Below, in pieces: positions 341 to 19,859 of a stretch of DNA of 19,859 nucleotides. The position numbers and the translations under genes are program-made. Numbering within the stretch: the first letter of the stretch is position 1; the number at the start of each line of letters is the position of its first letter. The stretch comes from a virus (Duplodnaviria; Heunggongvirae; Uroviricota; Caudoviricetes), in IMG/VR virus record IMGVR_UViG_3300045988_109904, positions 1 through 19,859 of that record. One strand, written 5' to 3'. Under the pieces are notes generated by a model that saw only the letters and a program-made list of their open reading frames with translations, searched no databases and had not been told where the DNA came from.

Positions 341-934
341 TCAATTATGTAAATCTTTTGTTTTATGTTCTTTGGTGTGTTGTGACAACAAATGGCTATA
401 GCGTTTAAGCAAAATATTAGAAAGATTAAGCTCATTCATGAAGTGTTCTTCTAATAAGTAACCATCAATATCAACTTTAATATCATTACCACTTTTCATC
501 TTCTGTAACGTAGATTTTACACGCTCCAGCAGGATGCTTTGCTCATGGTAATAGTCCATAAGAAGAGTAACATCCTCTTTATCAAGCTTACTTAATTCGC
601 TGAAGTAGGATTTAAACACTTTATCAGTCTGGTTTAATGCAATCTGTAAGCGAGGCCCCCCTAATGATTTGACATTAATGGCAAAAGGCTCGCCAACAAA
701 ATGCTCCGAATTTTCGTCAAAGCCAATATATCTCGTTTTATCAAGAAAAGTGAGAGCGCGATGGTTATTAGCGATTTCATATGCAAACATTGTTCTGATA
801 CTGTCCCTCTCAGCCTCCATAGTTATATCATCACGATGATTTGTATAAAATATATTTCCAACAAAGAGAACCATAGCAAGAATCACTGAACTTGCCTCCC
901 AGTTAATATTTTTTAATCGTCGCTTAGTAAACAT
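341..934 (-). CDS. Hypothetical membrane-anchored accessory protein (197 aa) at the post-tfa variable locus
   Basis: ATG at 934-932 preceded by AAGGTG 4 nt upstream; stop at 341-343. Basic N-terminus (MFTKRRLKN) followed by one hydrophobic helix (SSVILAMVLFVGNIFYT), then a hydrophilic domain of about 160 aa. Markedly AT-rich compared with the adjacent tail genes. I recognise no family. Confidence 0.75.
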   Translation of the reverse strand: MFTKRRLKNINWEASSVILAMVLFVGNIFYTNHRDDITMEAERDSIRTMFAYEIANNHRALTFLDKTRYIGFDENSEHFVGEPFAINVKSLGGPRLQIALNQTDKVFKSYFSELSKLDKEDVTLLMDYYHEQSILLERVKSTLQKMKSGNDIKVDIDGYLLEEHFMNELNLSNILLKRYSHLLSQHTKEHKTKDLHN

Positions 935-1155: not shown

Positions 1156-1683
1156 TTATTGCGGCATTTCCGGCCATTCAGGATTTGCAGGATCCACACG
1201 ACTGACCAGAACGCTGTAACGCTCCCATGCATCCAGTCGGCTACGCTCCTCATCTGTTGCCATGTTCAGTCTGACCGCGCGCTCCAGCGGCAAAATCACG
1301 GATTCAGCATCTGCAAGAAGTCTGGCTTTCCGGTTTTCTGCCTGCTGCAGCAATTCCTCTGCCGTATAAATGCGTTTAATCACTTTGCCGTCCTTAAACA
1401 TCCAGTTCCCTGAAATGTCCGCCCGTCGGTTAGCAGTAATATCCGCCACTTCAACAACACTTAATCCATCCGGTCTGATAGCTGTCACATCCTTTTCCAC
1501 ATAGCGGATGATATTATCTTTGTCGTACGCTATTTTTAGCGTGTCATCAGCAAAATACTTTTGTTCTTCGTACCAGTTCTTACCATCTTCTGAAAAAAAC
1601 CAGACAACATCAAAGTCTTTTGTCAATTGATATTGTTCAACCGTTTTTGGATTCCCCGCCGTAATATTTTTTAAATGCTGCAT
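1156..1683 (-). CDS. G: Tail fibre assembly protein (P2 gpG-like, Tfa family)
   Basis: 175-aa ORF with ATG at 1683 and TAA at 1156-1158, sitting 3 nt after the tail-fibre gene stop. The C-terminal region ([14 protein letters not shown]...NPEWPEMP) is characteristic of Tfa chaperones; length matches P2 G. Confidence 0.9.
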
Positions 1684-11152: not shown

Positions 11153-12226
11153 TTACGCTCCCGGCTCTGCGGTCGCTTTAGCCAGTGTGGAGAAATCACC
11201 GACCTTAATTTTTTCCACCAGACAACCGGCGGCGTAGTCTTCCACCACGTAATCAATGTTCATTGACTCGTAGTTCTCCACGCGGTCGAGTTTCGGGTTT
11301 TCCTCAATCACGCGGCGATGGCTGTCATCCATGTAGTAGATGGACAGGTTTTCCAGCTTTGTGATGAGCATCGCATCCGCCGGGAAGTACGGGACGCGTA
11401 CCGCCGGCAGGTTACCGATGCGTTTCTGGCTGATGATGACGTCAGCGGCCAGCATTTCGCTGTTGTCCTGCTCCTTGTTGACGATGGGAAAATACTTGTC
11501 CGCCAGTAGCTGACGTCCCACAATCACCACAAGGTCAGGGTCTTCCTGATACCACGGCTCAATCAGGTTGTTGGTCGCATCCATCACCAGTGCGTCAAGG
11601 CTGGCATAATCACCGCCCTTACCCACGCGGATGACCTCAGAGGTGGTGCGACCTTCCTCGTCAGCGACCTTGCTCATCACGCGCGCCGGGGCTTCATTGC
11701 GGTATTTCTGCAGCCAGCCGACCGCCACATCCTGCAGCATCGGATTGCTGCTGCGGTCAGAGGTTCCGGCACGCCTCACGCCGTTAAAACCGGCCATGAT
11801 TAAATCAAGGGACTGGCGTTTGATAATGGCGTTACGGACACGGAGCTGGAAATCCTGATAACGCGCCCACAGGTCCAGCGTTTTGTAGCGGATATAAAAA
11901 TCGAAGTTAATCTGGTCGCATTCGTACTTGTTTGACGCCAGCTTCGAGAAGTCCTTCGGCTGACGCTCGGTGCCACCGGCGGTGTCGGTGGTGCTGGCGA
12001 TGGAGCCGGTGACACCGATGCCAATTTTTTCCCCTTTCATTTCGCTGACCGGCACAATGTTGATGCGGGTCAGAAAGTCAGAGGACTCCTGCATGGTGTT
12101 CATCAGGGTCTGGGTGACCGACGGTTCAACGGTGAATTTTTTCGACACATCACCGGCGTCGATGCCGTTCAGTTCGGCAACACGGGACAGGTAGGCATTA
12201 AATTTAAAGCGGGTTTCCTGGCGCAT
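11153..12226 (-). CDS. N: Major capsid protein N (P2 gpN-like)
   Basis: 357-aa ORF with ATG at 12226 preceded by AGGAA. Size and position between scaffold O and terminase M are as in P2. Confidence 0.92.
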   Translation of the reverse strand: MRQETRFKFNAYLSRVAELNGIDAGDVSKKFTVEPSVTQTLMNTMQESSDFLTRINIVPVSEMKGEKIGIGVTGSIASTTDTAGGTERQPKDFSKLASNKYECDQINFDFYIRYKTLDLWARYQDFQLRVRNAIIKRQSLDLIMAGFNGVRRAGTSDRSSNPMLQDVAVGWLQKYRNEAPARVMSKVADEEGRTTSEVIRVGKGGDYASLDALVMDATNNLIEPWYQEDPDLVVIVGRQLLADKYFPIVNKEQDNSEMLAADVIISQKRIGNLPAVRVPYFPADAMLITKLENLSIYYMDDSHRRVIEENPKLDRVENYESMNIDYVVEDYAAGCLVEKIKVGDFSTLAKATAEPGA

Positions 12227-12284
12227 AGTTTTTCCTGAAATTAAGGGTTAATCGTGAAGGTTTTCCCGGACTGACTGACGCCGG

Positions 12285-13139
12285 TCAGCAGTTCGTCATC
12301 AGGGCGTCACCGCCACCACCGGTGGCCTTGCTGCGGCGCTGCTGGGTCAGACTTTCGGTGTGGTCGAGACTGTTTTTCAGGCGGGTGAATGCCTGGCTGG
12401 TTTCATCCGCCCTGTCAGTCACATCCTGCTTAAGTGCGGAAAAAGCGGTTTCCATCTCAGCGAGGCGCTGCTCAGTGGCGCTCAGTTTTTCCTGCACATG
12501 TTCAGCAACAGCGGTCACCGCTTCATGCACGTCATTCAGACGGGCGTCATCGCTGGCCTGTTTGCGGCCAAAAATGGACTTCACCTTTTCGGTCAGGGCG
12601 GTGAACACGGTTTCAGGCAGGTCTTCAAATTCCAGCTCAACGGGCGTTGCCACTGAAATCAGGTTTTCAGGGCTTAATTTGAAGCGGTTCAGGGGGTTGT
12701 GTTTTGCCGTGCGGCAGAATTCCAGGTATTCCGTGCCGAGGCTTGCCGGGTCATCGGTGACGGCCAGACCCACCAGATAACATTTGCCGGTATTGGCAAA
12801 GTTCGGCTGAATTTCCATTGAGGTATAGACCTTCTGCGCGGCCTTGTTCATCGCGATAAGGTCATCGGTCGGGGTGATTTTCGCAAACAGCGCCCATTTG
12901 CCTTTCAGCGCCGAATCATCGTCAATCTTTTCGGCCTTCAGTTCGACCACATCGCCATAACGCTTAAAAATACCGTCAGGCAGGACGCCGCGCAGATGTT
13001 CCAGGTTAATGCGGCAACCATAGACTCGCGGGTCAAAGGTTTCGGCCATTTCCTGAATATCCTGCGCACTGATGACACGCCCGTCACAGGTGTCACCCTC
13101 AACGCCGATACGAAAGAATTTTGAGACTTTTTTTGCCAT
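12285..13139 (-). CDS. O: Capsid scaffolding protein O (P2 gpO-like)
   Basis: I trimmed the track ORF (12285..13205) to the internal ATG at 13139-13137, giving 284 aa starting MAKKVSKFFRIGVEGDTCDGR, which is the P2 gpO length. The C-terminal region is helical and charged, as expected for a scaffold. Confidence 0.9.
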   Translation of the reverse strand: MAKKVSKFFRIGVEGDTCDGRVISAQDIQEMAETFDPRVYGCRINLEHLRGVLPDGIFKRYGDVVELKAEKIDDDSALKGKWALFAKITPTDDLIAMNKAAQKVYTSMEIQPNFANTGKCYLVGLAVTDDPASLGTEYLEFCRTAKHNPLNRFKLSPENLISVATPVELEFEDLPETVFTALTEKVKSIFGRKQASDDARLNDVHEAVTAVAEHVQEKLSATEQRLAEMETAFSALKQDVTDRADETSQAFTRLKNSLDHTESLTQQRRSKATGGGGDALMTNC

Positions 13140-13312
13140 TGTCAGGAGTCCTGAATAGTGATTAGAGGAGTCACATGTCGGCATCAGTTTCCCGACGATA
13201 CGCATCCTCCGCCATCAGTCCCGGATGGCTTATCACTGACACAACAGCACCTTAGCGAATCGCGGGGCGCGACTCAGTAGCCTTGCCGTGTATTCATCAC
13301 GGCGAGGTATTC
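13140..13312. promoter_or_regulatory. Divergent O/P intergenic region: expected site of the divergent late promoters (P_O and P_P)
   Basis: 173-bp gap between divergently transcribed O (minus) and P (plus). The call is positional, from P2 organisation. I found no perfect TGT-N12-ACA late-promoter dyad by eye. Confidence 0.4.
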
Positions 13313-15085
13313 ATGACCATCACCACAGACACCACTCTTTTACACGACCCGCGTCGTCAGGCGGCGCTGCTGTACTGGCAGGGGTTTTCCGTGCCGCAGA
13401 TTGCCGCCATGTTGCAGATGAAACGCCCGACGGTGCAGAGCTGGAAACAGCGCGACGGCTGGGACAGCGTTGCCCCCATCAGCCGTGTCGAAATGAGCCT
13501 GGAAGCGCGGCTGACCCAGCTCATCATCAAACCGCAGAAAACCGGCGGTGACTTCAAGGAAATTGACCTGCTGGGACGCCAGATTGAACGACTGGCACGG
13601 GTAAACCGCTACAGCCAGACCGGCAACGAGGCAGACCTTAATCCGAACGTCGCTAACCGCAACAAAGGCGGGCGTCGCAAACCGAAAAAGAATTTTTTCA
13701 GTGACGAAGCCATCGAAAAGCTGGAGCAGATTTTCTTTGAGCAGTCTTTCGACTATCAGTTGCACTGGTATCGCGCCGGGCTTGAGCACCGCATCCGCGA
13801 TATCCTGAAATCCCGCCAGATTGGCGCGACGTTTTATTTTTCCCGCGAGGCACTGCTGCGCGCCCTGAAAACCGGTCATAACCAGATTTTTCTGTCGGCC
13901 AGTAAAACGCAGGCGTATGTGTTCCGCGAATACATCATCGCCTTTGCCCGTCTGGTGGACGTTGACCTTACCGGTGACCCGATTGTCCTGGGCAATAACG
14001 GCGCAAAACTGATTTTTCTCGGCACCAACTCCAACACCGCGCAGAGCCATAACGGCGACCTGTACGTCGATGAGATTTTCTGGATCCCGAATTTTCAGGT
14101 ACTGCGTAAGGTGGCATCAGGTATGGCCTCACAGAGTCACCTGCGCTCGACCTATTTCTCCACCCCGTCCACGCTGGCGCACGACGCCTACCCGTTCTGG
14201 TCAGGTGAACTGTTCAACCGGGGACGTGCCAGCGCCGCCGAACGTGTGGAAATCGACGTCAGTCATAACGCCCTTGCCAGCGGGCTTCTCTGTGCGGACG
14301 GCCAGTGGCGGCAGATTGTCACCATTGAGGACGCCCTGAAAGGCGGCTGCACACTGTTCGACATTGAGCAGCTCAAACGTGAAAACAGCGCCGACGATTT
14401 TAAAAACCTGTTCATGTGTGAATTTGTTGACGACAAGGCGTCGGTGTTCCCGTTCGAGGAGCTGCAACGCTGCATGGTCGACACGCTGGAAGAATGGGAA
14501 GACTATGCACCCTTTGCCGCCAATCCGTTCGGCTCCCGCCCGGTATGGATTGGTTACGACCCGTCACACCGTGGCGACAGTGCCGGATGCGTGGTGCTGG
14601 CACCGCCGGTGGTGGCCGGTGGCAAATTCAGAATACTTGAGCGTCACCAGTGGAAAGGCATGGACTTTGCCACTCAGGCTGAATCCATCCGCAAACTCAC
14701 CGAAAAATACAACGTCGAATACATCGGTATTGATGCCACCGGCCTCGGTGTCGGCGTGTTCCAGCTCGTGCGCTCGTTCTATCCCGCCGCGCGCGATATC
14801 CGCTACACACCGGAAATGAAAACCGCAATGGTGCTCAAGGCAAAAGACGTTATCCGCCGTGGCTGTCTGGAATATGACGTCAGCGCCACCGACATCACCA
14901 GCTCGTTTATGGCTATCCGCAAGACCATGACCAGCAGCGGACGCAGCGCCACTTATGAGGCCAGCCGCAGCGAGGAAGCCAGCCACGCCGACCTCGCCTG
15001 GGCGACCATGCACGCCCTGTTAAATGAGCCACTCACCGCCGGTATCAGCACCCCGCTGACATCCACCATTCTGGAGTTTTACTGA
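13313..15085 (+). CDS. P: Terminase large (ATPase) subunit P (P2 gpP-like)
   Basis: I trimmed the track ORF to ATG at 13313 (GAGGT 4 nt upstream; the track start at 13283 is TTG). The 590-aa product starts MTITTDTTLLHDPRRQAALLYWQGFSVPQIAAM; this length equals P2 gpP. Its TGA overlaps the Q ATG. Confidence 0.93.
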   Translation: MTITTDTTLLHDPRRQAALLYWQGFSVPQIAAMLQMKRPTVQSWKQRDGWDSVAPISRVEMSLEARLTQLIIKPQKTGGDFKEIDLLGRQIERLARVNRYSQTGNEADLNPNVANRNKGGRRKPKKNFFSDEAIEKLEQIFFEQSFDYQLHWYRAGLEHRIRDILKSRQIGATFYFSREALLRALKTGHNQIFLSASKTQAYVFREYIIAFARLVDVDLTGDPIVLGNNGAKLIFLGTNSNTAQSHNGDLYVDEIFWIPNFQVLRKVASGMASQSHLRSTYFSTPSTLAHDAYPFWSGELFNRGRASAAERVEIDVSHNALASGLLCADGQWRQIVTIEDALKGGCTLFDIEQLKRENSADDFKNLFMCEFVDDKASVFPFEELQRCMVDTLEEWEDYAPFAANPFGSRPVWIGYDPSHRGDSAGCVVLAPPVVAGGKFRILERHQWKGMDFATQAESIRKLTEKYNVEYIGIDATGLGVGVFQLVRSFYPAARDIRYTPEMKTAMVLKAKDVIRRGCLEYDVSATDITSSFMAIRKTMTSSGRSATYEASRSEEASHADLAWATMHALLNEPLTAGISTPLTSTILEFY

Positions 15086-16119
15086 TGAGCAAGAAAAAAG
15101 GGAAAACACCGCAACCTGCGGCAAAAAAAATGACCGCCAGCGCCCCGAAAATGGAGGCATTCACCTTTGGTGAGCCGGTGCCGGTGCTCGACCGCCGTGA
15201 CATTCTGGATTACGTCGAATGTATCAGTAACGGCAGATGGTATGAGCCGCCGGTCAGCTTTACCGGTCTGGCAAAAAGCCTGCGTGCTGCCGTGCATCAC
15301 AGCTCACCGATTTACGTCAAACGTAATATTCTGGCTTCAACGTTTATCCCGCACCCGTGGCTTTCCCAGCAGGATTTCAGCCGCTTTGTGCTGGATTTTC
15401 TGGTGTTCGGTAATGCGTTTCTGGAAAAGCGTTACAGCACCACCGGTAAGGTCATCAGACTGGAAACCTCACCGGCAAAATATACCCGCCGTGGCGTGGA
15501 GGAGGATGTTTACTGGTGGGTGCCGTCCTTCAACGAGCCGACAGCCTTCGCGCCCGGCTCCGTGTTTCACCTGCTGGAGCCGGATATTAATCAGGAGCTG
15601 TACGGCCTGCCGGAATATCTCAGCGCCCTTAACTCTGCCTGGCTGAATGAGTCGGCCACGCTGTTCCGCCGCAAGTATTACGAAAATGGCGCACATGCCG
15701 GATACATCATGTACGTCACCGATGCCGTGCAGGATCGCAACGATATCGAAATGCTTCGCGAAAACATGGTGAAGTCGAAAGGCCGCAACAACTTTAAAAA
15801 CCTGTTTCTCTATGCCCCGCAGGGGAAAGCCGACGGCATTAAAATTATCCCGCTCAGTGAAGTGGCGACGAAGGACGATTTTTTTAATATCAAAAAAGCC
15901 AGCGCCGCTGACCTGCTGGACGCACACCGCATCCCCTTTCAGTTGATGGGTGGCAAGCCGGAGAACGTCGGGTCACTGGGTGATATTGAGAAAGTGGCAA
16001 AGGTCTTTGTCCGCAATGAGCTAATCCCGTTACAGGACAGGATTCGGGAAATAAACGGCTGGCTCGGCCAGGAGGTCATCCGCTTTAAAAACTACTCACT
16101 GGACACTGACAACGGCTGA
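15085..16119 (+). CDS. Q: Portal protein Q (P2 gpQ-like)
   Basis: 344-aa ORF with ATG at 15085 overlapping the P stop (ATGA). It is followed by a strong terminator and the cos match, as in P2. Confidence 0.93.
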   Translation: MSKKKGKTPQPAAKKMTASAPKMEAFTFGEPVPVLDRRDILDYVECISNGRWYEPPVSFTGLAKSLRAAVHHSSPIYVKRNILASTFIPHPWLSQQDFSRFVLDFLVFGNAFLEKRYSTTGKVIRLETSPAKYTRRGVEEDVYWWVPSFNEPTAFAPGSVFHLLEPDINQELYGLPEYLSALNSAWLNESATLFRRKYYENGAHAGYIMYVTDAVQDRNDIEMLRENMVKSKGRNNFKNLFLYAPQGKADGIKIIPLSEVATKDDFFNIKKASAADLLDAHRIPFQLMGGKPENVGSLGDIEKVAKVFVRNELIPLQDRIREINGWLGQEVIRFKNYSLDTDNG

Positions 16120-16124
16120 ACATC

Positions 16125-16146
16125 GCCGCCTGCGGGCGGCTTTTTT
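16125..16146 (+). terminator. Rho-independent terminator after Q
   Basis: Stem gccgcc (16125-16130) / ggcggc (16135-16140) with loop tgcg, followed by TTTTTT (16141-16146), 5 nt after the Q stop codon. Confidence 0.75.
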
Positions 16147-16288
16147 ACACCCCGTCATCACGCCCTCACACGCTCACCACCGCACAAAACACCCCGCAGA
16201 CACACCAACGCCCTAGCAGGCCAAGTAAACGCCTTCACGACGCGCTCAGACGCTGAAAAAATAAAATCCGCACCACCGCCAGCGCGCA

Positions 16289-16307
16289 GTGCTTTCCCCG
16301 CCTCGCC
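16289..16307. other. cos site (19-nt cohesive-end sequence of P2/P4 type)
   Basis: The minus strand of 16289..16307 reads GGCGAGGCGGGGAAAGCAC, which matches the P2 cohesive-end sequence as I recall it. It lies in a C-rich region about 170 bp past Q, where cos sits in P2. Confidence 0.65.
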
Positions 16308-16325
16308 CGCCCGCTTCATAGGGCG

Positions 16326-16347
16326 CTTTTAATGCAATTGCATTAAA
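16326..16347. repeat. Perfect 22-bp palindrome ttttaatgcaa|ttgcattaaaa
   Basis: The two halves are exact reverse complements with no spacer. It lies 19 bp from the cos match, at the GC-rich to AT-rich transition. Function is unknown (candidate protein-binding site). Confidence 0.85.
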
Positions 16348-16631
16348 ACACAGTAACCGCATCAACACTGGTAACAAACATGGAAAAGCATGGCAACTAA
16401 CACACGCAAAAAAATGCACTTAATGAATGCAGTAATAAAAATCTCAGGAAATTGACAATTCATTTATTTTTTCAAAATCCCAGTTAGTTAAAGGCTCGCT
16501 ATCATTACAAGCAATCAAAAAATGTCTTAGCTCTAACAGCAAGTAGTAATAGTAGTTGCCACCAACAAGCGTTAACATTACCATAACAAACAACAAGCAT
16601 TCCTACACCTACATCAGATGAACAGGTAATT

Positions 16632-17996
16632 ATGATTAATTTAATTATGGGTGGTTTTCCCGACCACTACGACCACTGGAAACCATTCAGCCAAAATAAT
16701 GGAGAATTCTCATTTCTTTTATCACGAATGTTTGAAAACACCTCCGATGGTATTCGCAAAAAACTATCCCCATTAAGCAGCAATGTACTATCTTATCTTG
16801 AAAAACTCCCAACAATATTCATGAGTGAAGCTTATCAAATAGAGGGAGCAAAACCTTATTATGTCGACATACGAATTGGAAGAATTTCAAATATTCACAT
16901 TAAGGGAAAAGAAATCAACTTCCAATTTGCAATCACCCATACACACAATGAAATCAAAATATCAGACGCCAAAAGTGTTGAAAGCAGTTTAGAACTCGGA
17001 ACTTATGGCCTTAAAAGAACACACTGGGCCATAAAAGACAAAAATATAGATGATATCCTTAAGACATTTGGTATTAACCAAAATGCACAAGTGGATAGCA
17101 GTCCAGCGCCTCTCCCAGACGAAGATAGCACATTATTAACCGTAAATAGTTTACAAGAATTTATTGAAAAAGTTCTCCATATAACAGCAGATATGGATGA
17201 GGAGATTTTTTACAGGGGTCATTCAGATTCATCTTATGAACTTGCACCATCTCTTTTCAGAAAATATGAAAATGGGAACTATAAATTTCTACATAATGAA
17301 ATCAACCTTGTTAAAGAAGCATTGAGCGCAAGACCCTCAGAATTCATTGATGATACATCAATGCTTGATAAACTTGTAAGAATGCAACATTATGGCATAC
17401 CTACTCGCTTACTTGACATCACATCAAATCCATTAATTGCACTTTATTTTGCATGCAGTAGTATAAATTCCGACAAAAACGATATCGATGGTCAAGTAAT
17501 AATATTTAAAACACACAGAGAGAACATTAAATTTTTCGATTCCGACACTGTCAGTTGCATATCTAATTTATGCATGCTATCAAAAGACATGAAAGACAAG
17601 CTTTCTTTCGAAGAAAGAAATAATGATTTTAACAACTCTCATGCTTGCCTTAAACTCTTAGAATCCATAAAGCATGAAAAACCATATTTTCAAAGCATAA
17701 TAAATCCAGATGATTTGGAAAAGATAATTTTTGTAAAAAGCAGGATAAATAATGAAAGAATATCATCTCAATCCGGTGCCTTTTTATTATTCGGTAATAA
17801 CGCCGTTTTTCCTGAGATATCCAACGATCAGGCAGATAATTCACCATACAACTTTAAGACAGAAAAAATAAACATCAGAGACAAAAAGAAAATTTTAAAA
17901 GAACTTGCCGTGCTCAATATTACTGATGCCACTGTATATTTAGGATTGGAAAGAACAATGAAACTAATCACAGAAAAATACACATTAAAAAATTAG
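16632..17996 (+). CDS. FRG-domain protein (454 aa) with an unassigned ~190-aa N-terminal domain; candidate anti-phage cargo
   Basis: ATG at 16632 (AGGT 4 nt upstream), TAG at 17994-17996. The central region carries FRG-family signature strings: FYRGHSDSSYELAPSLFRK (from aa 193) and QHYGIPTRLLDITSNPLIALYFAC (from aa 252). The gene is AT-rich, unlike the phage core. Confidence 0.85.
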   Translation: MINLIMGGFPDHYDHWKPFSQNNGEFSFLLSRMFENTSDGIRKKLSPLSSNVLSYLEKLPTIFMSEAYQIEGAKPYYVDIRIGRISNIHIKGKEINFQFAITHTHNEIKISDAKSVESSLELGTYGLKRTHWAIKDKNIDDILKTFGINQNAQVDSSPAPLPDEDSTLLTVNSLQEFIEKVLHITADMDEEIFYRGHSDSSYELAPSLFRKYENGNYKFLHNEINLVKEALSARPSEFIDDTSMLDKLVRMQHYGIPTRLLDITSNPLIALYFACSSINSDKNDIDGQVIIFKTHRENIKFFDSDTVSCISNLCMLSKDMKDKLSFEERNNDFNNSHACLKLLESIKHEKPYFQSIINPDDLEKIIFVKSRINNERISSQSGAFLLFGNNAVFPEISNDQADNSPYNFKTEKINIRDKKKILKELAVLNITDATVYLGLERTMKLITEKYTLKN

Positions 17997-18023
17997 CATT
18001 CCATAACCAAAATATCTCCATAC

Positions 18024-18052
18024 TTCCCCGCAGAAATTAAGGCTACGGGGAA
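18024..18052. terminator. Hairpin between the convergent FRG and RT genes (possible bidirectional terminator)
   Basis: 7-bp stem ttccccg (18024-18030) / cggggaa (18046-18052) with a 15-nt loop, in the 108-bp gap between the two stop codons. The long loop and absence of a clean U-tract make this a weak call. Confidence 0.3.
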
Positions 18053-18104
18053 ATAACATCAGTAAGTATCTTAAGAACAATATAATCACTTACAGGAACC
18101 TGTA

Positions 18105-19082
18105 TTAAAGTGCAGTACTTGCTTTTAATGTAAGCACCTTTGATCTATAACGTTGTTCAATTACCCCCATAGAATGCAATCGTCCAAATAACTTTTTGGC
18201 AGTATGAGTTTCTCTTGCACACGCTGCATCCTTTATCATTTTCCAATATTCAATTTCTTGAGACATTAAAAGATGCTGCTTATTCCTGACTTTTAAAGAA
18301 CCGCCCAAAACAATAACACCTGTTACCAACTTAGGCTTTTCTCTACTATAAATTTTTGTTTTATCCGCATGCATCACATGACCATGCTTATTTATTATTT
18401 TGCGAATCACTGAACAAAATAGTCTATTAACGTTTTGTCCTGAAAAAGTTAGATCATCAACATAAACAGACATATTTACGTGTAGTTTATTACAAAGTTG
18501 GTGTATTTCTCCGAACATTCTTGAATTTGCAAAATATGCAAGAGGCATACTAATCCTGCTACCTGTAGGCAAACGCCCATAGCAAGTACATATATACGAT
18601 AATACATCCGCAACATCAGATGACATCTTCATAACAGAAAAAAAGAATGAAAATATCATTTCTCTAGTAGTTGATGGAAAAAAAGCCCTGATGTCGGTTG
18701 TCATCAACCTTTCATTATTAAGGTGGATTTTAGCATTAGTAACATTAGAACATCCCTTCTTTCCAGAATGTAGATAATCTGGCAAGGTAATTCGCGATAG
18801 CAGACTTGCAATACGAGTATGCACCACATCTAATTTTTCTAATGGTTTTTGTATCTTACGTGGCTTTCCGTTTTTAGATAACTGTTCAAAAATAGAATAA
18901 TTGCCTTCATCTTTTTTTAAGGTTGATAAATCCCCTACATCAACCCCCAATAAAGAAGCCAATTTCCTTTTACTTCTCATTTTATAAAACGGCGAATCAA
19001 TTATATCGTAAGATTTATTTTTAGTGGAAATTTTGAGTTTTATTCGTCTTTTCATTTTTCTTATTCGCCCACTCAATAACAT
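18105..19082 (-). CDS. Reverse transcriptase, retron-type (about 316-325 aa)
   Basis: ATG at 19082 (alternative ATG at 19055), TAA at 18105-18107. It has RT catalytic YVDD (aa 207-210, nt 18464-18453), LPTGSRISMPLA (the QGxxxSP-like motif), and two retron-RT hallmarks: NAxxH (NAKIH, aa 116-120) and VTG (KLVTGVIV, aa 252-259). Size matches retron RTs (Ec86 RT is about 320 aa). Confidence 0.88.
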   Translation of the reverse strand: MLLSGRIRKMKRRIKLKISTKNKSYDIIDSPFYKMRSKRKLASLLGVDVGDLSTLKKDEGNYSIFEQLSKNGKPRKIQKPLEKLDVVHTRIASLLSRITLPDYLHSGKKGCSNVTNAKIHLNNERLMTTDIRAFFPSTTREMIFSFFFSVMKMSSDVADVLSYICTCYGRLPTGSRISMPLAYFANSRMFGEIHQLCNKLHVNMSVYVDDLTFSGQNVNRLFCSVIRKIINKHGHVMHADKTKIYSREKPKLVTGVIVLGGSLKVRNKQHLLMSQEIEYWKMIKDAACARETHTAKKLFGRLHSMGVIEQRYRSKVLTLKASTAL

Positions 19083-19353
19083 CTAATACTTTACCAGCTA
19101 AATTTAAACGGAAACGCTTAGATAAACGCCCCTGCGTACCTAACGATTCTGAAAAAAATACTAAAGAAGATACCGGCATATCGAAATGGGAGGCGTAACG
19201 CTGTAAAACATCAATTGTAGGCGACCAAACCCCACTTTCGAGTTCTACTATTTTTTCTTTTGGAATACCTAAAGATGTTGATAAATCAACCAATGACTCT
19301 TTATGGTATTGCCTTATTAAACGAAGGGCTCTGTGTAACATAGGCAACTCCAT
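19021..19353 (-). CDS. XRE-family helix-turn-helix protein (110 aa) immediately upstream of, and overlapping, the RT gene
   Basis: ATG at 19353 (alternative ATG at 19341 with GGAG 6 nt upstream). HTH_XRE-like segment LRLIRQYHKESLVDLSTSLGIPKEKIVELESGVWSPTIDVLQRYASHF. Its 3' end overlaps the RT 5' end by about 35-60 nt, suggesting co-translation. Confidence 0.75.
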   Translation of the reverse strand: MELPMLHRALRLIRQYHKESLVDLSTSLGIPKEKIVELESGVWSPTIDVLQRYASHFDMPVSSLVFFSESLGTQGRLSKRFRLNLAGKVLDVIEWANKKNEKTNKTQNFH

Positions 19354-19377
19354 GCTATTGAAACTAGGGAGGACGCA

Positions 19378-19533
19378 TTACTCATCACCCCCTTCAAAGT
19401 AGTCCAGTGCTCGAGTGGCTAAATCAAACAGTCTAATACCCCATTTGATTAATTTCCAAACATAACCAGCCCACTTTTTCAGGTTTGACTTGTTCTGCGC
19501 CTGCTGTTCGTTGGTTAATTTATCATTCTTCAT
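19378..19533 (-). CDS. Small ORF (51 aa) with a strong RBS, between the structured RNA region and the HTH gene
   Basis: ATG at 19533-19531 preceded by AAGGAG 7 nt upstream; stop at 19378-19380. Product MKNDKLTNEQQAQNKSNLKKWAGYVWKLIKWGIRLFDLATRALDYFEGGDE has a Trp-rich amphipathic stretch. The track's 130-aa version starts at TTG and reads through the structured region; I prefer the short form. Confidence 0.45.
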   Translation of the reverse strand: MKNDKLTNEQQAQNKSNLKKWAGYVWKLIKWGIRLFDLATRALDYFEGGDE

Positions 19534-19547
19534 GATTTGCTCCTTAT

Positions 19548-19802
19548 GCCCATAGTGTGCAAACGATATGTCTGCTCCAACACTATGGTTCGCCCTCATA
19601 AGGATGAGATTGAACAGCACTAGCCCCCTGCTCCACGAACCCTTGGTCGCCCAAAGGGTTCGAATACCCATACGCCATACCGCCTGATCCTGTGACTCTT
19701 GTCGCTGGCAGGGGCGTTGCGCGGGGTAAATGTTAGAAAGCGTTAACTTTCCACGGGTAAAGTTACCCAATTGATGGCGATGTATCTCACTAACTAACCA
19801 AT
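19548..19802 (-). ncRNA. Candidate structured non-coding RNA (possible retron msr-msd, or a structured operon leader)
   Basis: Dense inverted repeats on a GC-richer patch: an 11-bp stem with one bulge, cgaacccttgg (19636-19646) / ccaaagggttcg (19651-19662); a perfect 9-bp stem ccatagtgt (19550-19558) / acactatgg (19580-19588); and small hairpins around 19596-19612 and 19749-19770. Direct repeats tggagcag and gggcga(a)cca are also present. It lies downstream of an extended -10 promoter. Boundaries are approximate and a1/a2 repeats were not resolved. Confidence 0.35.
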
Positions 19803-19808
19803 GTTTGC

Positions 19809-19837
19809 ATCATAACAAGTAAACCGTTGTATTTGAT
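19809..19837 (-). promoter_or_regulatory. Candidate sigma70 promoter with extended -10 driving the RT-module transcript
   Basis: Minus strand reads TGtTATGAT (TG at 19817-19816, -10 hexamer 19814..19809). The -35 (atcaaa, 17-bp spacer) is weak. The predicted start near 19802 coincides with the beginning of the structured region. Confidence 0.35.
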
Positions 19838-19859
19838 CTCCCTATATATAATATTTTTT

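Follow-up and report, generated by a model that had tools for sequence, protein, structure and literature searches.

The AT-rich gene at positions 16632..17996 (+) of a 19,859-nt stretch of Caudoviricetes DNA (IMG/VR record IMGVR_UViG_3300045988_109904, analysed over its full length and called here the window) encodes a 454-aa FRG-domain protein; it stands alone as a self-contained unit in the Q-to-A hotspot of a P2-like Escherichia coli prophage, where it fills the sub-slot next to cos. On balance, comparative analysis leads us to favour the reading that this is a stand-alone immunity gene, carried by the prophage for the benefit of its lysogen and encoding a sensor and an effector in one protein. 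The reading is built on the gene itself, its domains, folds predicted with moderate confidence, its independence of an adjoining retron, its cargo and variable genomic contexts, and the reuse of its N-terminal domain (N-domain) with abortive-infection effectors.

The gene is an unbroken ATG-start open reading frame (ORF) of 454 codons, with the stop codon included in the coordinates, and has a GC content of 33% against 56% in the neighbouring terminase (13283..15085) and portal (15085..16119) genes, both of P2 type and confirmed by Pfam. Its product is WP_016239053.1, named ‘FRG domain-containing protein’ in RefSeq, and phrog_4962, a PHROG family of unknown function, spans its full length. A script search located an exact match to the reverse complement of GGCGAGGCGGGGAAAGCAC, which we take to be the 19-nt cohesive-end (cos) sequence of P2, at 16289..16307 (no strand assigned), marking the end of the phage genome and the start of the cargo slot. 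Because this match ends at 16307, the FRG gene starts 325 bp past cos, inside the genome end. The initial annotation had placed a single AT-rich 454-aa gene just past cos in a P2-like cargo slot and had read FRG signature strings in it, and both statements are borne out by the ORF, its composition, the distance from cos, the Pfam matches of its neighbours and the family assignment given below.

Experiments have established the Q-to-A hotspot of P2-like phages as a reservoir of anti-phage systems (Rousset 2022, PMC9122126). An identical FRG protein is encoded at the corresponding position of Peduovirus P22H1 (= Escherichia virus P2_2H1), an isolated phage, with the same retron and replication gene A coming next in that order, and we count both the location and this identity in favour of an anti-phage role. 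Several complete E. coli chromosomes match the window at 100% identity across the 3.7 kb from portal to retron, and the FRG allele is present in 60 of 5,426 complete E. coli genomes, every copy being at least 99% identical.

The C-terminal region (residues 169-454; 17136..17993 (+)) is the putative effector and has a predicted ADP-ribosyltransferase (ART)-like fold. The strings FYRGHSDSSYELAPSLFRK and QHYGIPTRLLDITSNPLIALYFAC are found at residues 193-211 and 252-275, respectively, and the Pfam FRG family (PF08867) matches residues 191-281 (nt 17202-17474) over profile positions 2-92 of 94 with E = 2.4e-21 and 76.9 bits against a cut-off of 25, placing the assignment far beyond chance. The (F/Y)RG motif reads F193-Y194-R195-G196, of which Y194, R195 and G196 are invariant in 45 homologues. 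Further invariant residues of the region include H197, R210, Q252, H253, T258, R259, D262, N266, S304-C309, E349, K350, N374, R376, S379, Q380 and G382.

The same half belongs to a catalogued defence candidate. Fourteen PADLOC-DB models of PDC-S15 match the C-terminal 285 residues, the best (PDLC04936) with E = 7.3e-98 over residues 168-451 and model positions 21-297 of 300. The PADLOC phage defence candidates (PDCs) are a set of 145 untested families nominated through guilt-by-embedding within BREX, DISARM, type I restriction-modification (RM) and Hma systems (Payne et al.), and we count the match, together with this embedding origin, in favour of an anti-phage role. Sequence membership is direct and the single-gene character agrees: no neighbour family was found in more than 8 of 80 loci of relatives, and partners differ even at the same P2 slot. 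The difference is that the PDC-S15 models cover the FRG half alone, leaving the N-domain outside their definition. No other PADLOC family, including OLD, DarT and DarG, matches the protein, NCBIfam has no model for it, and no ART model other than FRG in Pfam, NCBIfam or PADLOC matches it at the sequence level. The expectation of the initial annotation that no FRG protein would be found among named defence systems therefore holds for validated systems and fails for candidate ones.

At the level of predicted structure, the FRG half matches more than 20 ART-superfamily structures, among them TreX (6.3), diphtheria toxin (5.4) and Tpt1 (5.2), as well as ArtA, heat-labile toxin, PARPs, exotoxin A, RES toxins and Scabin. 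In the predicted fold, R195 and H197 are placed at the end of strand one and T264-S265-N266 after strand two. The Aravind group has assigned FRG to the ART superfamily as a possible NADase effector, according to the passage that cites this work in PMC9503650. We regard the FRG region, with moderate confidence and from the predicted model, as a divergent member of the ART fold. Burroughs and Aravind, in 2020, are said to be the primary source of the assignment. Set beside the ART effectors of known conflict systems (RES toxins, DarT, Tre/Rhs ART toxins, Tpt1/KptA), the FRG protein differs in lacking an antitoxin partner of the DarG, Xre or ParS kind. DarTG itself, a DarT-family ART with an adjacent macrodomain antitoxin, is not represented here, as neither DarT nor DarG models of PADLOC find a match and no antitoxin gene neighbours the FRG gene.

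The N-terminal domain (residues 1-150; 16632..17081 (+)) is the putative sensor, predicted to form a PUA-like beta-barrel. It comprises about 150 aa and is joined to the FRG region by an 18-aa linker (residues 151-168; 17082..17135 (+)) with a predicted local distance difference test (pLDDT) score of 58-70 and a mean pairwise identity among homologues of 16%. Its signatures are SRxxExT (31-37) and RTHWAxK (129-135), and F28, R32, E35, T37, E66, G123, R129, W132 and K135 are invariant within the FRG family. The predicted structure is a PUA-like pseudo-barrel whose top fold matches include THYN1 bound to 5-methylcytosine (5mC) DNA, the modification-dependent endonuclease VcaM4I, the N-domain of McrB and the 5-hydroxymethylcytosine (5hmC)-specific PD-T4-3. 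The conserved aromatic (F28, H131, W132) and basic (R32, R129, K135) residues are, as far as sequence alone can tell, of the kind expected for a nucleotide pocket. Foldseek against the PDB returned nothing significant, and a PDB sequence-profile search with the family alignment gave no match even at E <= 10; with sequence profiles finding neither family, the PUA-like and ART assignments are both of moderate strength.

Searching for homologues through indexed words, with the N-domain as the query, recovered nothing but pieces of the same protein, and an exhaustive profile search of 1.84 billion cluster representatives was used in its place to survey the reuse of the domain. The profile found 911 proteins at E <= 0.001, 273 of them at E <= 1e-10; they measure about 150 to 867 aa and contain the domain at varying positions in the chain. 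Partner domains and conservation were taken from a Pfam scan of 80 of the 911. The most frequent partner in this sample is a TIR domain of CAP12/Pycsar type (20 proteins), followed by Abi_C and FRG (7 each), TIR_2 and Ser/Thr protein kinase (5 each), TIR (4), PNP_UDP_1 (2) and SEFIR (1), with single cases of AbiJ_NTD3, Schlafen AlbA_2, guanylate cyclase, EAD2, FGE-sulfatase and a DncV-like nucleotidyltransferase (CD-NTase). Representative chains are AbiJ_NTD3 with N-domain and TIR, N-domain with Ser/Thr kinase, EAD2 with N-domain, kinase and FGE-sulfatase, N-domain with a CBASS-type PNP effector and kinase, and N-domain with Schlafen. Across the 80 proteins R32 and W132 are invariant, and E35, T37, R129, T130, H131 and K135 are nearly so. 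The fusions of about 300 aa between N-domain and TIR constitute a second PADLOC candidate, PDC-S35, which is likewise a single-gene candidate with the same N-terminal domain (R32 and W132 invariant, RTHWAxK nearly so); it differs in bearing a CAP12/Pycsar-type TIR effector of NADase type in place of FRG, and it too has candidate status only.

A domain joined to interchangeable toxic modules carries the signature of an input domain, either sensory or regulatory, and the set of partners places FRG among the effectors, most often beside the NAD+-degrading TIR. The mean pairwise identity within the FRG family is 40% for the N-domain against 57% for the FRG half, and we count this faster divergence, a pattern common in immune sensors, in favour of a sensor role. 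The initial annotation had described an N-terminal domain of about 190 aa matching nothing recognisable. It was right in that no sequence-level family was found, whereas the domain is shorter, is followed by a linker, looks PUA-like at the fold level and is widely reused. Going further, we tentatively suggest, with odds that we would put somewhat below even, that the N-domain may represent a PUA-like receptor family not named before, which would respond to a nucleotide danger signal and, in about 900 clusters, gate at least eight effector types (TIR, SEFIR, Abi_C, Ser/Thr kinase, PNP, Schlafen, a cyclase-linked form and FRG), with FRG as an NAD+-dependent immune effector of the ART fold.

The same fold matches allow a different division of labour, in which the protein would be a modification-dependent, restriction-like enzyme: the PUA-like domain would read a modified base (hydroxymethylcytosine (hmC), glucosyl-hmC or N6-methyladenine (m6A)) in phage DNA or RNA, and FRG would ADP-ribosylate that nucleic acid with a chemistry resembling that of DarT, Scabin or pierisin, so that replication is blocked and death of the cell is not required. 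THYN1 with its 5mC DNA, VcaM4I, the McrB N-domain and PD-T4-3 are all consistent with this, as are the DNA-modifying Scabin and the RNA-acting Tpt1 among the ART-fold matches, and fusions of PUA-like domains to nucleases are established type IV restriction enzymes (PMC6765204). We nevertheless consider it unlikely, since the commonest partners of the N-domain (TIR, Abi_C, kinase, PNP) target metabolites or host components and not invader DNA, a nuclease partner was seen in none of the 80 scanned N-domain proteins, and the DarT models of PADLOC are unmatched.

Full-length homologues with both domains (more than 3,500 matches at 41-67% identity) occur in Enterobacterales, Aeromonas, Rhizobiales, Sphingomonadales, Pseudomonas and others, and a pattern-limited scan of one genome per species gave 277 loci encoding an FRG relative, patchily distributed. 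The surveys of neighbouring genes across species cover the best 80 of these 277 loci. In prophages the gene behaves as swapped cargo: a 48%-identical paralogue (P0049) has the same slot and orientation in other E. coli P2-like prophages; in P2-like prophages of Klebsiella, a 58%-identical relative is found at a different cargo site, flanked by the gpU tail gene and the genes for the tail fibres; and a 47%-identical relative is located terminally in a lambdoid prophage, adjoining a colicin gene and the corresponding immunity gene. We count this exchange in favour of an anti-phage role. Phages Tritos and PhiR11_1 carry further relatives at 44-45% identity.

Clustering of the 851 ORFs within 6 kb of the gene in the 80 species yielded no family that keeps its place from genus to genus. 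Pfam sorts the 137 immediate neighbours into 92 families, including phage integrases, IetS proteases, cytosine methylases, ResIII/DEAD helicases, AbiEii-type ATPases and MobA. With no neighbour family in more than 8 of the 80 loci, the FRG gene is a stand-alone unit of variable, often mobile or defence-flavoured regions. The homologue survey that the initial annotation had proposed thus finds relatives in prophage cargo slots, one of them at the same P2 locus, and in variable regions, with no conserved partner. In the Klebsiella loci (L001-L004), a 439-465-aa gene (8432/8510-9829 (+)) stands on the same strand directly upstream of the FRG homologue. Its 439-aa form has no PADLOC or PHROG match and no precomputed Pfam match, and it may be either a partner or a separate cargo gene.

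This distribution also bears on whether the gene serves defence at all. Its product could instead serve lysogenic conversion or otherwise benefit the phage, for instance as an ART-like enzyme whose modification of host proteins favours the prophage, or as a counter-defence protein that captures immune signalling nucleotides through its PUA-like domain. Such a function is rather improbable in our view. A relative is encoded at 277 loci, P2 portal or terminase genes are nearby at none of the best 80, the N-domain is common to abortive-infection modules of TIR, Abi_C and AbiJ type, and the family is found embedded in BREX, DISARM and RM systems. The classic anti-phage conversion genes of P2 itself (old, tin, fun(Z)) resemble the FRG gene as prophage-borne AT-rich cargo lying between cos/Q and gene A or in a tail-region slot, and differ from it in having no sequence or domain relationship to its product.

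If the FRG gene is a stand-alone immunity gene, we infer a defence role, a ligand, NAD+ chemistry and an abortive outcome that could be connected as follows. In an uninfected lysogen the N-domain would hold the FRG domain inactive. On infection by a competing phage, the N-domain would bind a nucleotide-type cue, which might be a free modified mononucleotide released as the phage degrades host DNA (compare N6-methyl-dAMP, m6dAMP) or a modified base in phage nucleic acid. Binding of the cue would release the FRG domain or cause it to oligomerise, the active domain would consume NAD+ or ADP-ribosylate an essential target, and growth of the infected cell would stop, aborting phage production.

The closest precedent is Metis (MisA/MisB; also PUA-Cal-HAD) of E. 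coli, for which it has been shown experimentally that a PUA-like sensor binds m6dAMP and turns on a fused enzyme that depletes NAD+ or dNTPs. Metis requires the MisB phosphatase to clear basal m6dAMP, and its PUA-like family is also fused to HEPN, TIR, DrHyd, HNH and McrB. Both proteins consist of one chain with an N-terminal PUA-like sensor, a linker and a C-terminal enzyme destroying NAD+ or nucleotides (shown for Metis, predicted for FRG), and in both the PUA-like domain is combined with alternative effectors. They differ in the effector, which is FRG (ART-like) here and a calcineurin-like metallophosphatase (PF00149) in Metis; FRG is the sole Pfam match of our protein.

Several observations weigh against the immunity reading or the mechanism sketched for it. 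There is no HAD phosphatase (MisB) gene beside the FRG gene, which is flanked by cos and the portal gene and, across from them, by the retron. The N-domain motifs SRxxExT and RTHWAxK are unlike the reported pocket residues of PUA-Cal, the likeness being one of predicted fold only; together with the different effector fold, these two points argue against simple membership of Metis. No Pfam family (including EVE, YTH, ASCH and PUA) recurs consistently in 30 N-domains, even at E <= 10. As regards the catalytic triad of ARTs (H-Y-E or R-S-E), an invariant Glu is not evident in the FRG half at the usual Q/E-x-E position, where the stretch reads S379-Q380-S-G382. Membership of PDC-S15 confers catalogue status alone, the PDCs being explicitly untested candidates, and some immediate neighbours in other species are ordinary metabolic or housekeeping genes. 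Experimental work on any FRG protein was not found in the searchable literature; FRG goes unmentioned in the main text of Rousset 2022 and of the 2026 P2/P4 hotspot paper, in the DefensePredictor preprint, in Kaur 2020, in the Metis and PUA-Cal-HAD preprints and in two preprints on type VI retrons.

The identity of the cue admits another possibility, that the protein is an orphan second-messenger effector whose N-domain would be the receptor for a cyclic oligonucleotide, or another signal, made by a cyclase encoded elsewhere in a CBASS-like manner. Three features of the N-domain family point in this direction. One protein (P0217) fuses a CD-NTase, the N-domain and FRG in a single chain, another (P0269) has the N-domain where the receptor of a CBASS-type PNP effector usually sits, attached to the catalytic part of such an effector, and the commonest TIR partner is of CAP12/Pycsar type. 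However, no CD-NTase was found by tblastn within 10 kb at any of the 80 loci, and the window has none, so that the operon with a CD-NTase that characterises CBASS is lacking and the P0217 fusion is the sole link, and no CD-NTase stands beside the N-domain-TIR or N-domain-PNP-kinase proteins checked. The fusion itself comes from a single metagenomic contig, and an effector reliant on a host cyclase would be unlikely cargo for a phage with about 33 kb of packaging space. We therefore regard this possibility as remote, and a cue sensed directly by a one-protein sensor-effector as the better account. The P0217 ORF (L097 6001-8283) encodes 760 aa comprising a full CBASS-type CD-NTase, whose cyclase part matches the PADLOC Cyclase model with E = 1e-112, followed by the N-domain and FRG; it is surrounded by transposase genes, DruA being encoded close by, and could be a one-chain CBASS-like system or an artefact of assembly or gene calling.

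Downstream of the FRG gene lie the protein genes of a type VI retron, complete at 18105..19533 (-): the reverse transcriptase (RT) at 18105..19082 (-) (PADLOC RT_VI, E = 1.1e-105), a helix-turn-helix (HTH) protein at 19021..19353 (-) (PADLOC HTH_VI, E = 7.2e-30), and a small protein (SP) of 51 aa at 19378..19533 (-), recognised from its translation and its RefSeq annotation. The retron as a whole takes up 18105-19859 (-), its non-coding RNA (ncRNA) being expected upstream of the protein genes and partly cut off by the window end; an Rfam search of 16000-19859 at E <= 1 gave no match, and the ncRNA was not recognised. The FRG and RT genes are convergent across a gap of 108 bp, which contains a hairpin (CCCCG, 15-nt loop, CGGGG; 18026..18050, no strand assigned) read from the sequence. 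The terminator scan did not call this hairpin (loop >8 nt), which is possibly a bidirectional terminator insulating the two modules.

As judged by comparison of genomes, the FRG gene is independent of this retron, as the initial annotation had thought probable from the convergent arrangement. In about 40 further E. coli genomes there are relatives of the window retron at about 75-85% identity, and the two such loci inspected have the same P2 slot with other cos-proximal cargo in place of FRG. In O157:H7 FRIK944 (L095 2946-3876) three small hypothetical genes of 89, 64 and 145 aa stand between cos and RT, and in strain CUPS04 (L096 3025-3825) a single 266-aa hypothetical gene (phrog_7611); PADLOC gave no match for the 89-, 145- and 266-aa genes scanned. 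Conversely, the loci of the P0049 paralogue (L006-L009) have no retron, and its place is taken by two unrelated convergent genes of 198 aa (phrog_13799, 11772-12369 (-)) and 243 aa (phrog_3403, 12451-13183 (-)); neither has a PADLOC match, and they may represent another cargo system. In other species, neither RT_VI nor HTH_VI was found within 10 kb of the FRG homologues at any of the 80 loci. The FRG gene thus stands outside the retron operon, on the opposite strand and beyond the hairpin, and each module is found without the other. All 60 complete E. coli genomes with the FRG allele do have the retron allele (at least 99% identity) adjoining it, but these copies are one near-clonal cassette and their linkage is therefore uninformative on function. 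Type VI retrons are moreover self-contained ncRNA-SP-HTH-RT operons in which the small protein is the toxin (two recent preprints). That the two convergent modules form one system with the FRG protein as its accessory effector is accordingly a very improbable explanation, and one that the comparative data, with slot-mates swapping both ways, largely refute.

Regarding novelty, the initial annotation had proposed an undescribed single-gene factor. The single gene without conserved partner stands, while ‘undescribed’ is overstated, as the family was already listed as a candidate and its effector role already predicted. What appears to be new here is the recognition, at the level of fold, of a PUA-like N-domain, together with its pairing with many effector types and the resulting link to sensing of modified mononucleotides. 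Should the gene defend, the FRG domain, a component of thousands of proteins from bacteria and phages, would for the first time have functional evidence behind it, and an ART-fold enzyme would join the short list of NAD+-targeting immune effectors (TIR, SIR2, SEFIR, the Metis phosphatase). If the receptor-family proposal is also true, there would be a large family of one-protein immune sensors with the P2 cargo gene as a directly testable member in E. coli, and the common N-domain would offer a handle on what the PDC-S15, PDC-S35, kinase, PNP and Abi_C fusions sense, at a time when PUA-like sensing of methylated mononucleotides has newly been discovered. Should the gene turn out not to defend, it simply adds to the uncharacterised cargo genes of P2. 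The system is tractable, consisting of one 1.4-kb gene in E. coli with an isolated temperate phage (P2_2H1) and an adjoining retron that can be tested separately.

Upstream of the FRG gene there is a sigma-70-like promoter candidate at 16556..16584 (+) (TTGCCA, 17-nt spacer, TACCAT; 48 nt before the ATG), which has 9 of 12 consensus matches and is possibly the gene's own promoter; the consensus scan found 17 such sites against 12.9 expected by chance, so that the candidate is weakly supported. A TTG-start ORF of 50 aa (16444-16596 (-)) between cos and the FRG gene overlaps this upstream region. It is annotated as hypothetical in the P2_2H1 record and unannotated in RefSeq, and is probably not a real gene. 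The P2_2H1 deposit (LR595870.1; L014 1-22) ends in a Nextera transposase adapter, AGATGTGTATAAGAGACAG, so the record terminus is not the true cos end, and we rejected it as a marker of that end.

At the other end of the window, a 197-aa ORF with an N-terminal hydrophobic segment (341-934 (-); WP_042209895.1, hypothetical in RefSeq) lies beyond the tail-fibre assembly gene (1156..1683). The GC content of the AT-rich region 1-1000 is 0.37-0.38, and the region of this ORF, presumably the Z/fun position of P2, looks like a second cargo position. Apart from one insertion, the window is collinear with NZ_CP043406.1 (strain NMBU-W13E19), in whose prophage ISEc12 (IS21-like; L101 9055-12543) splits the GPO scaffold gene at a site corresponding to about 13007-13024 of the window; the window is without the insertion, and its prophage is therefore intact at this point of the scaffold gene.

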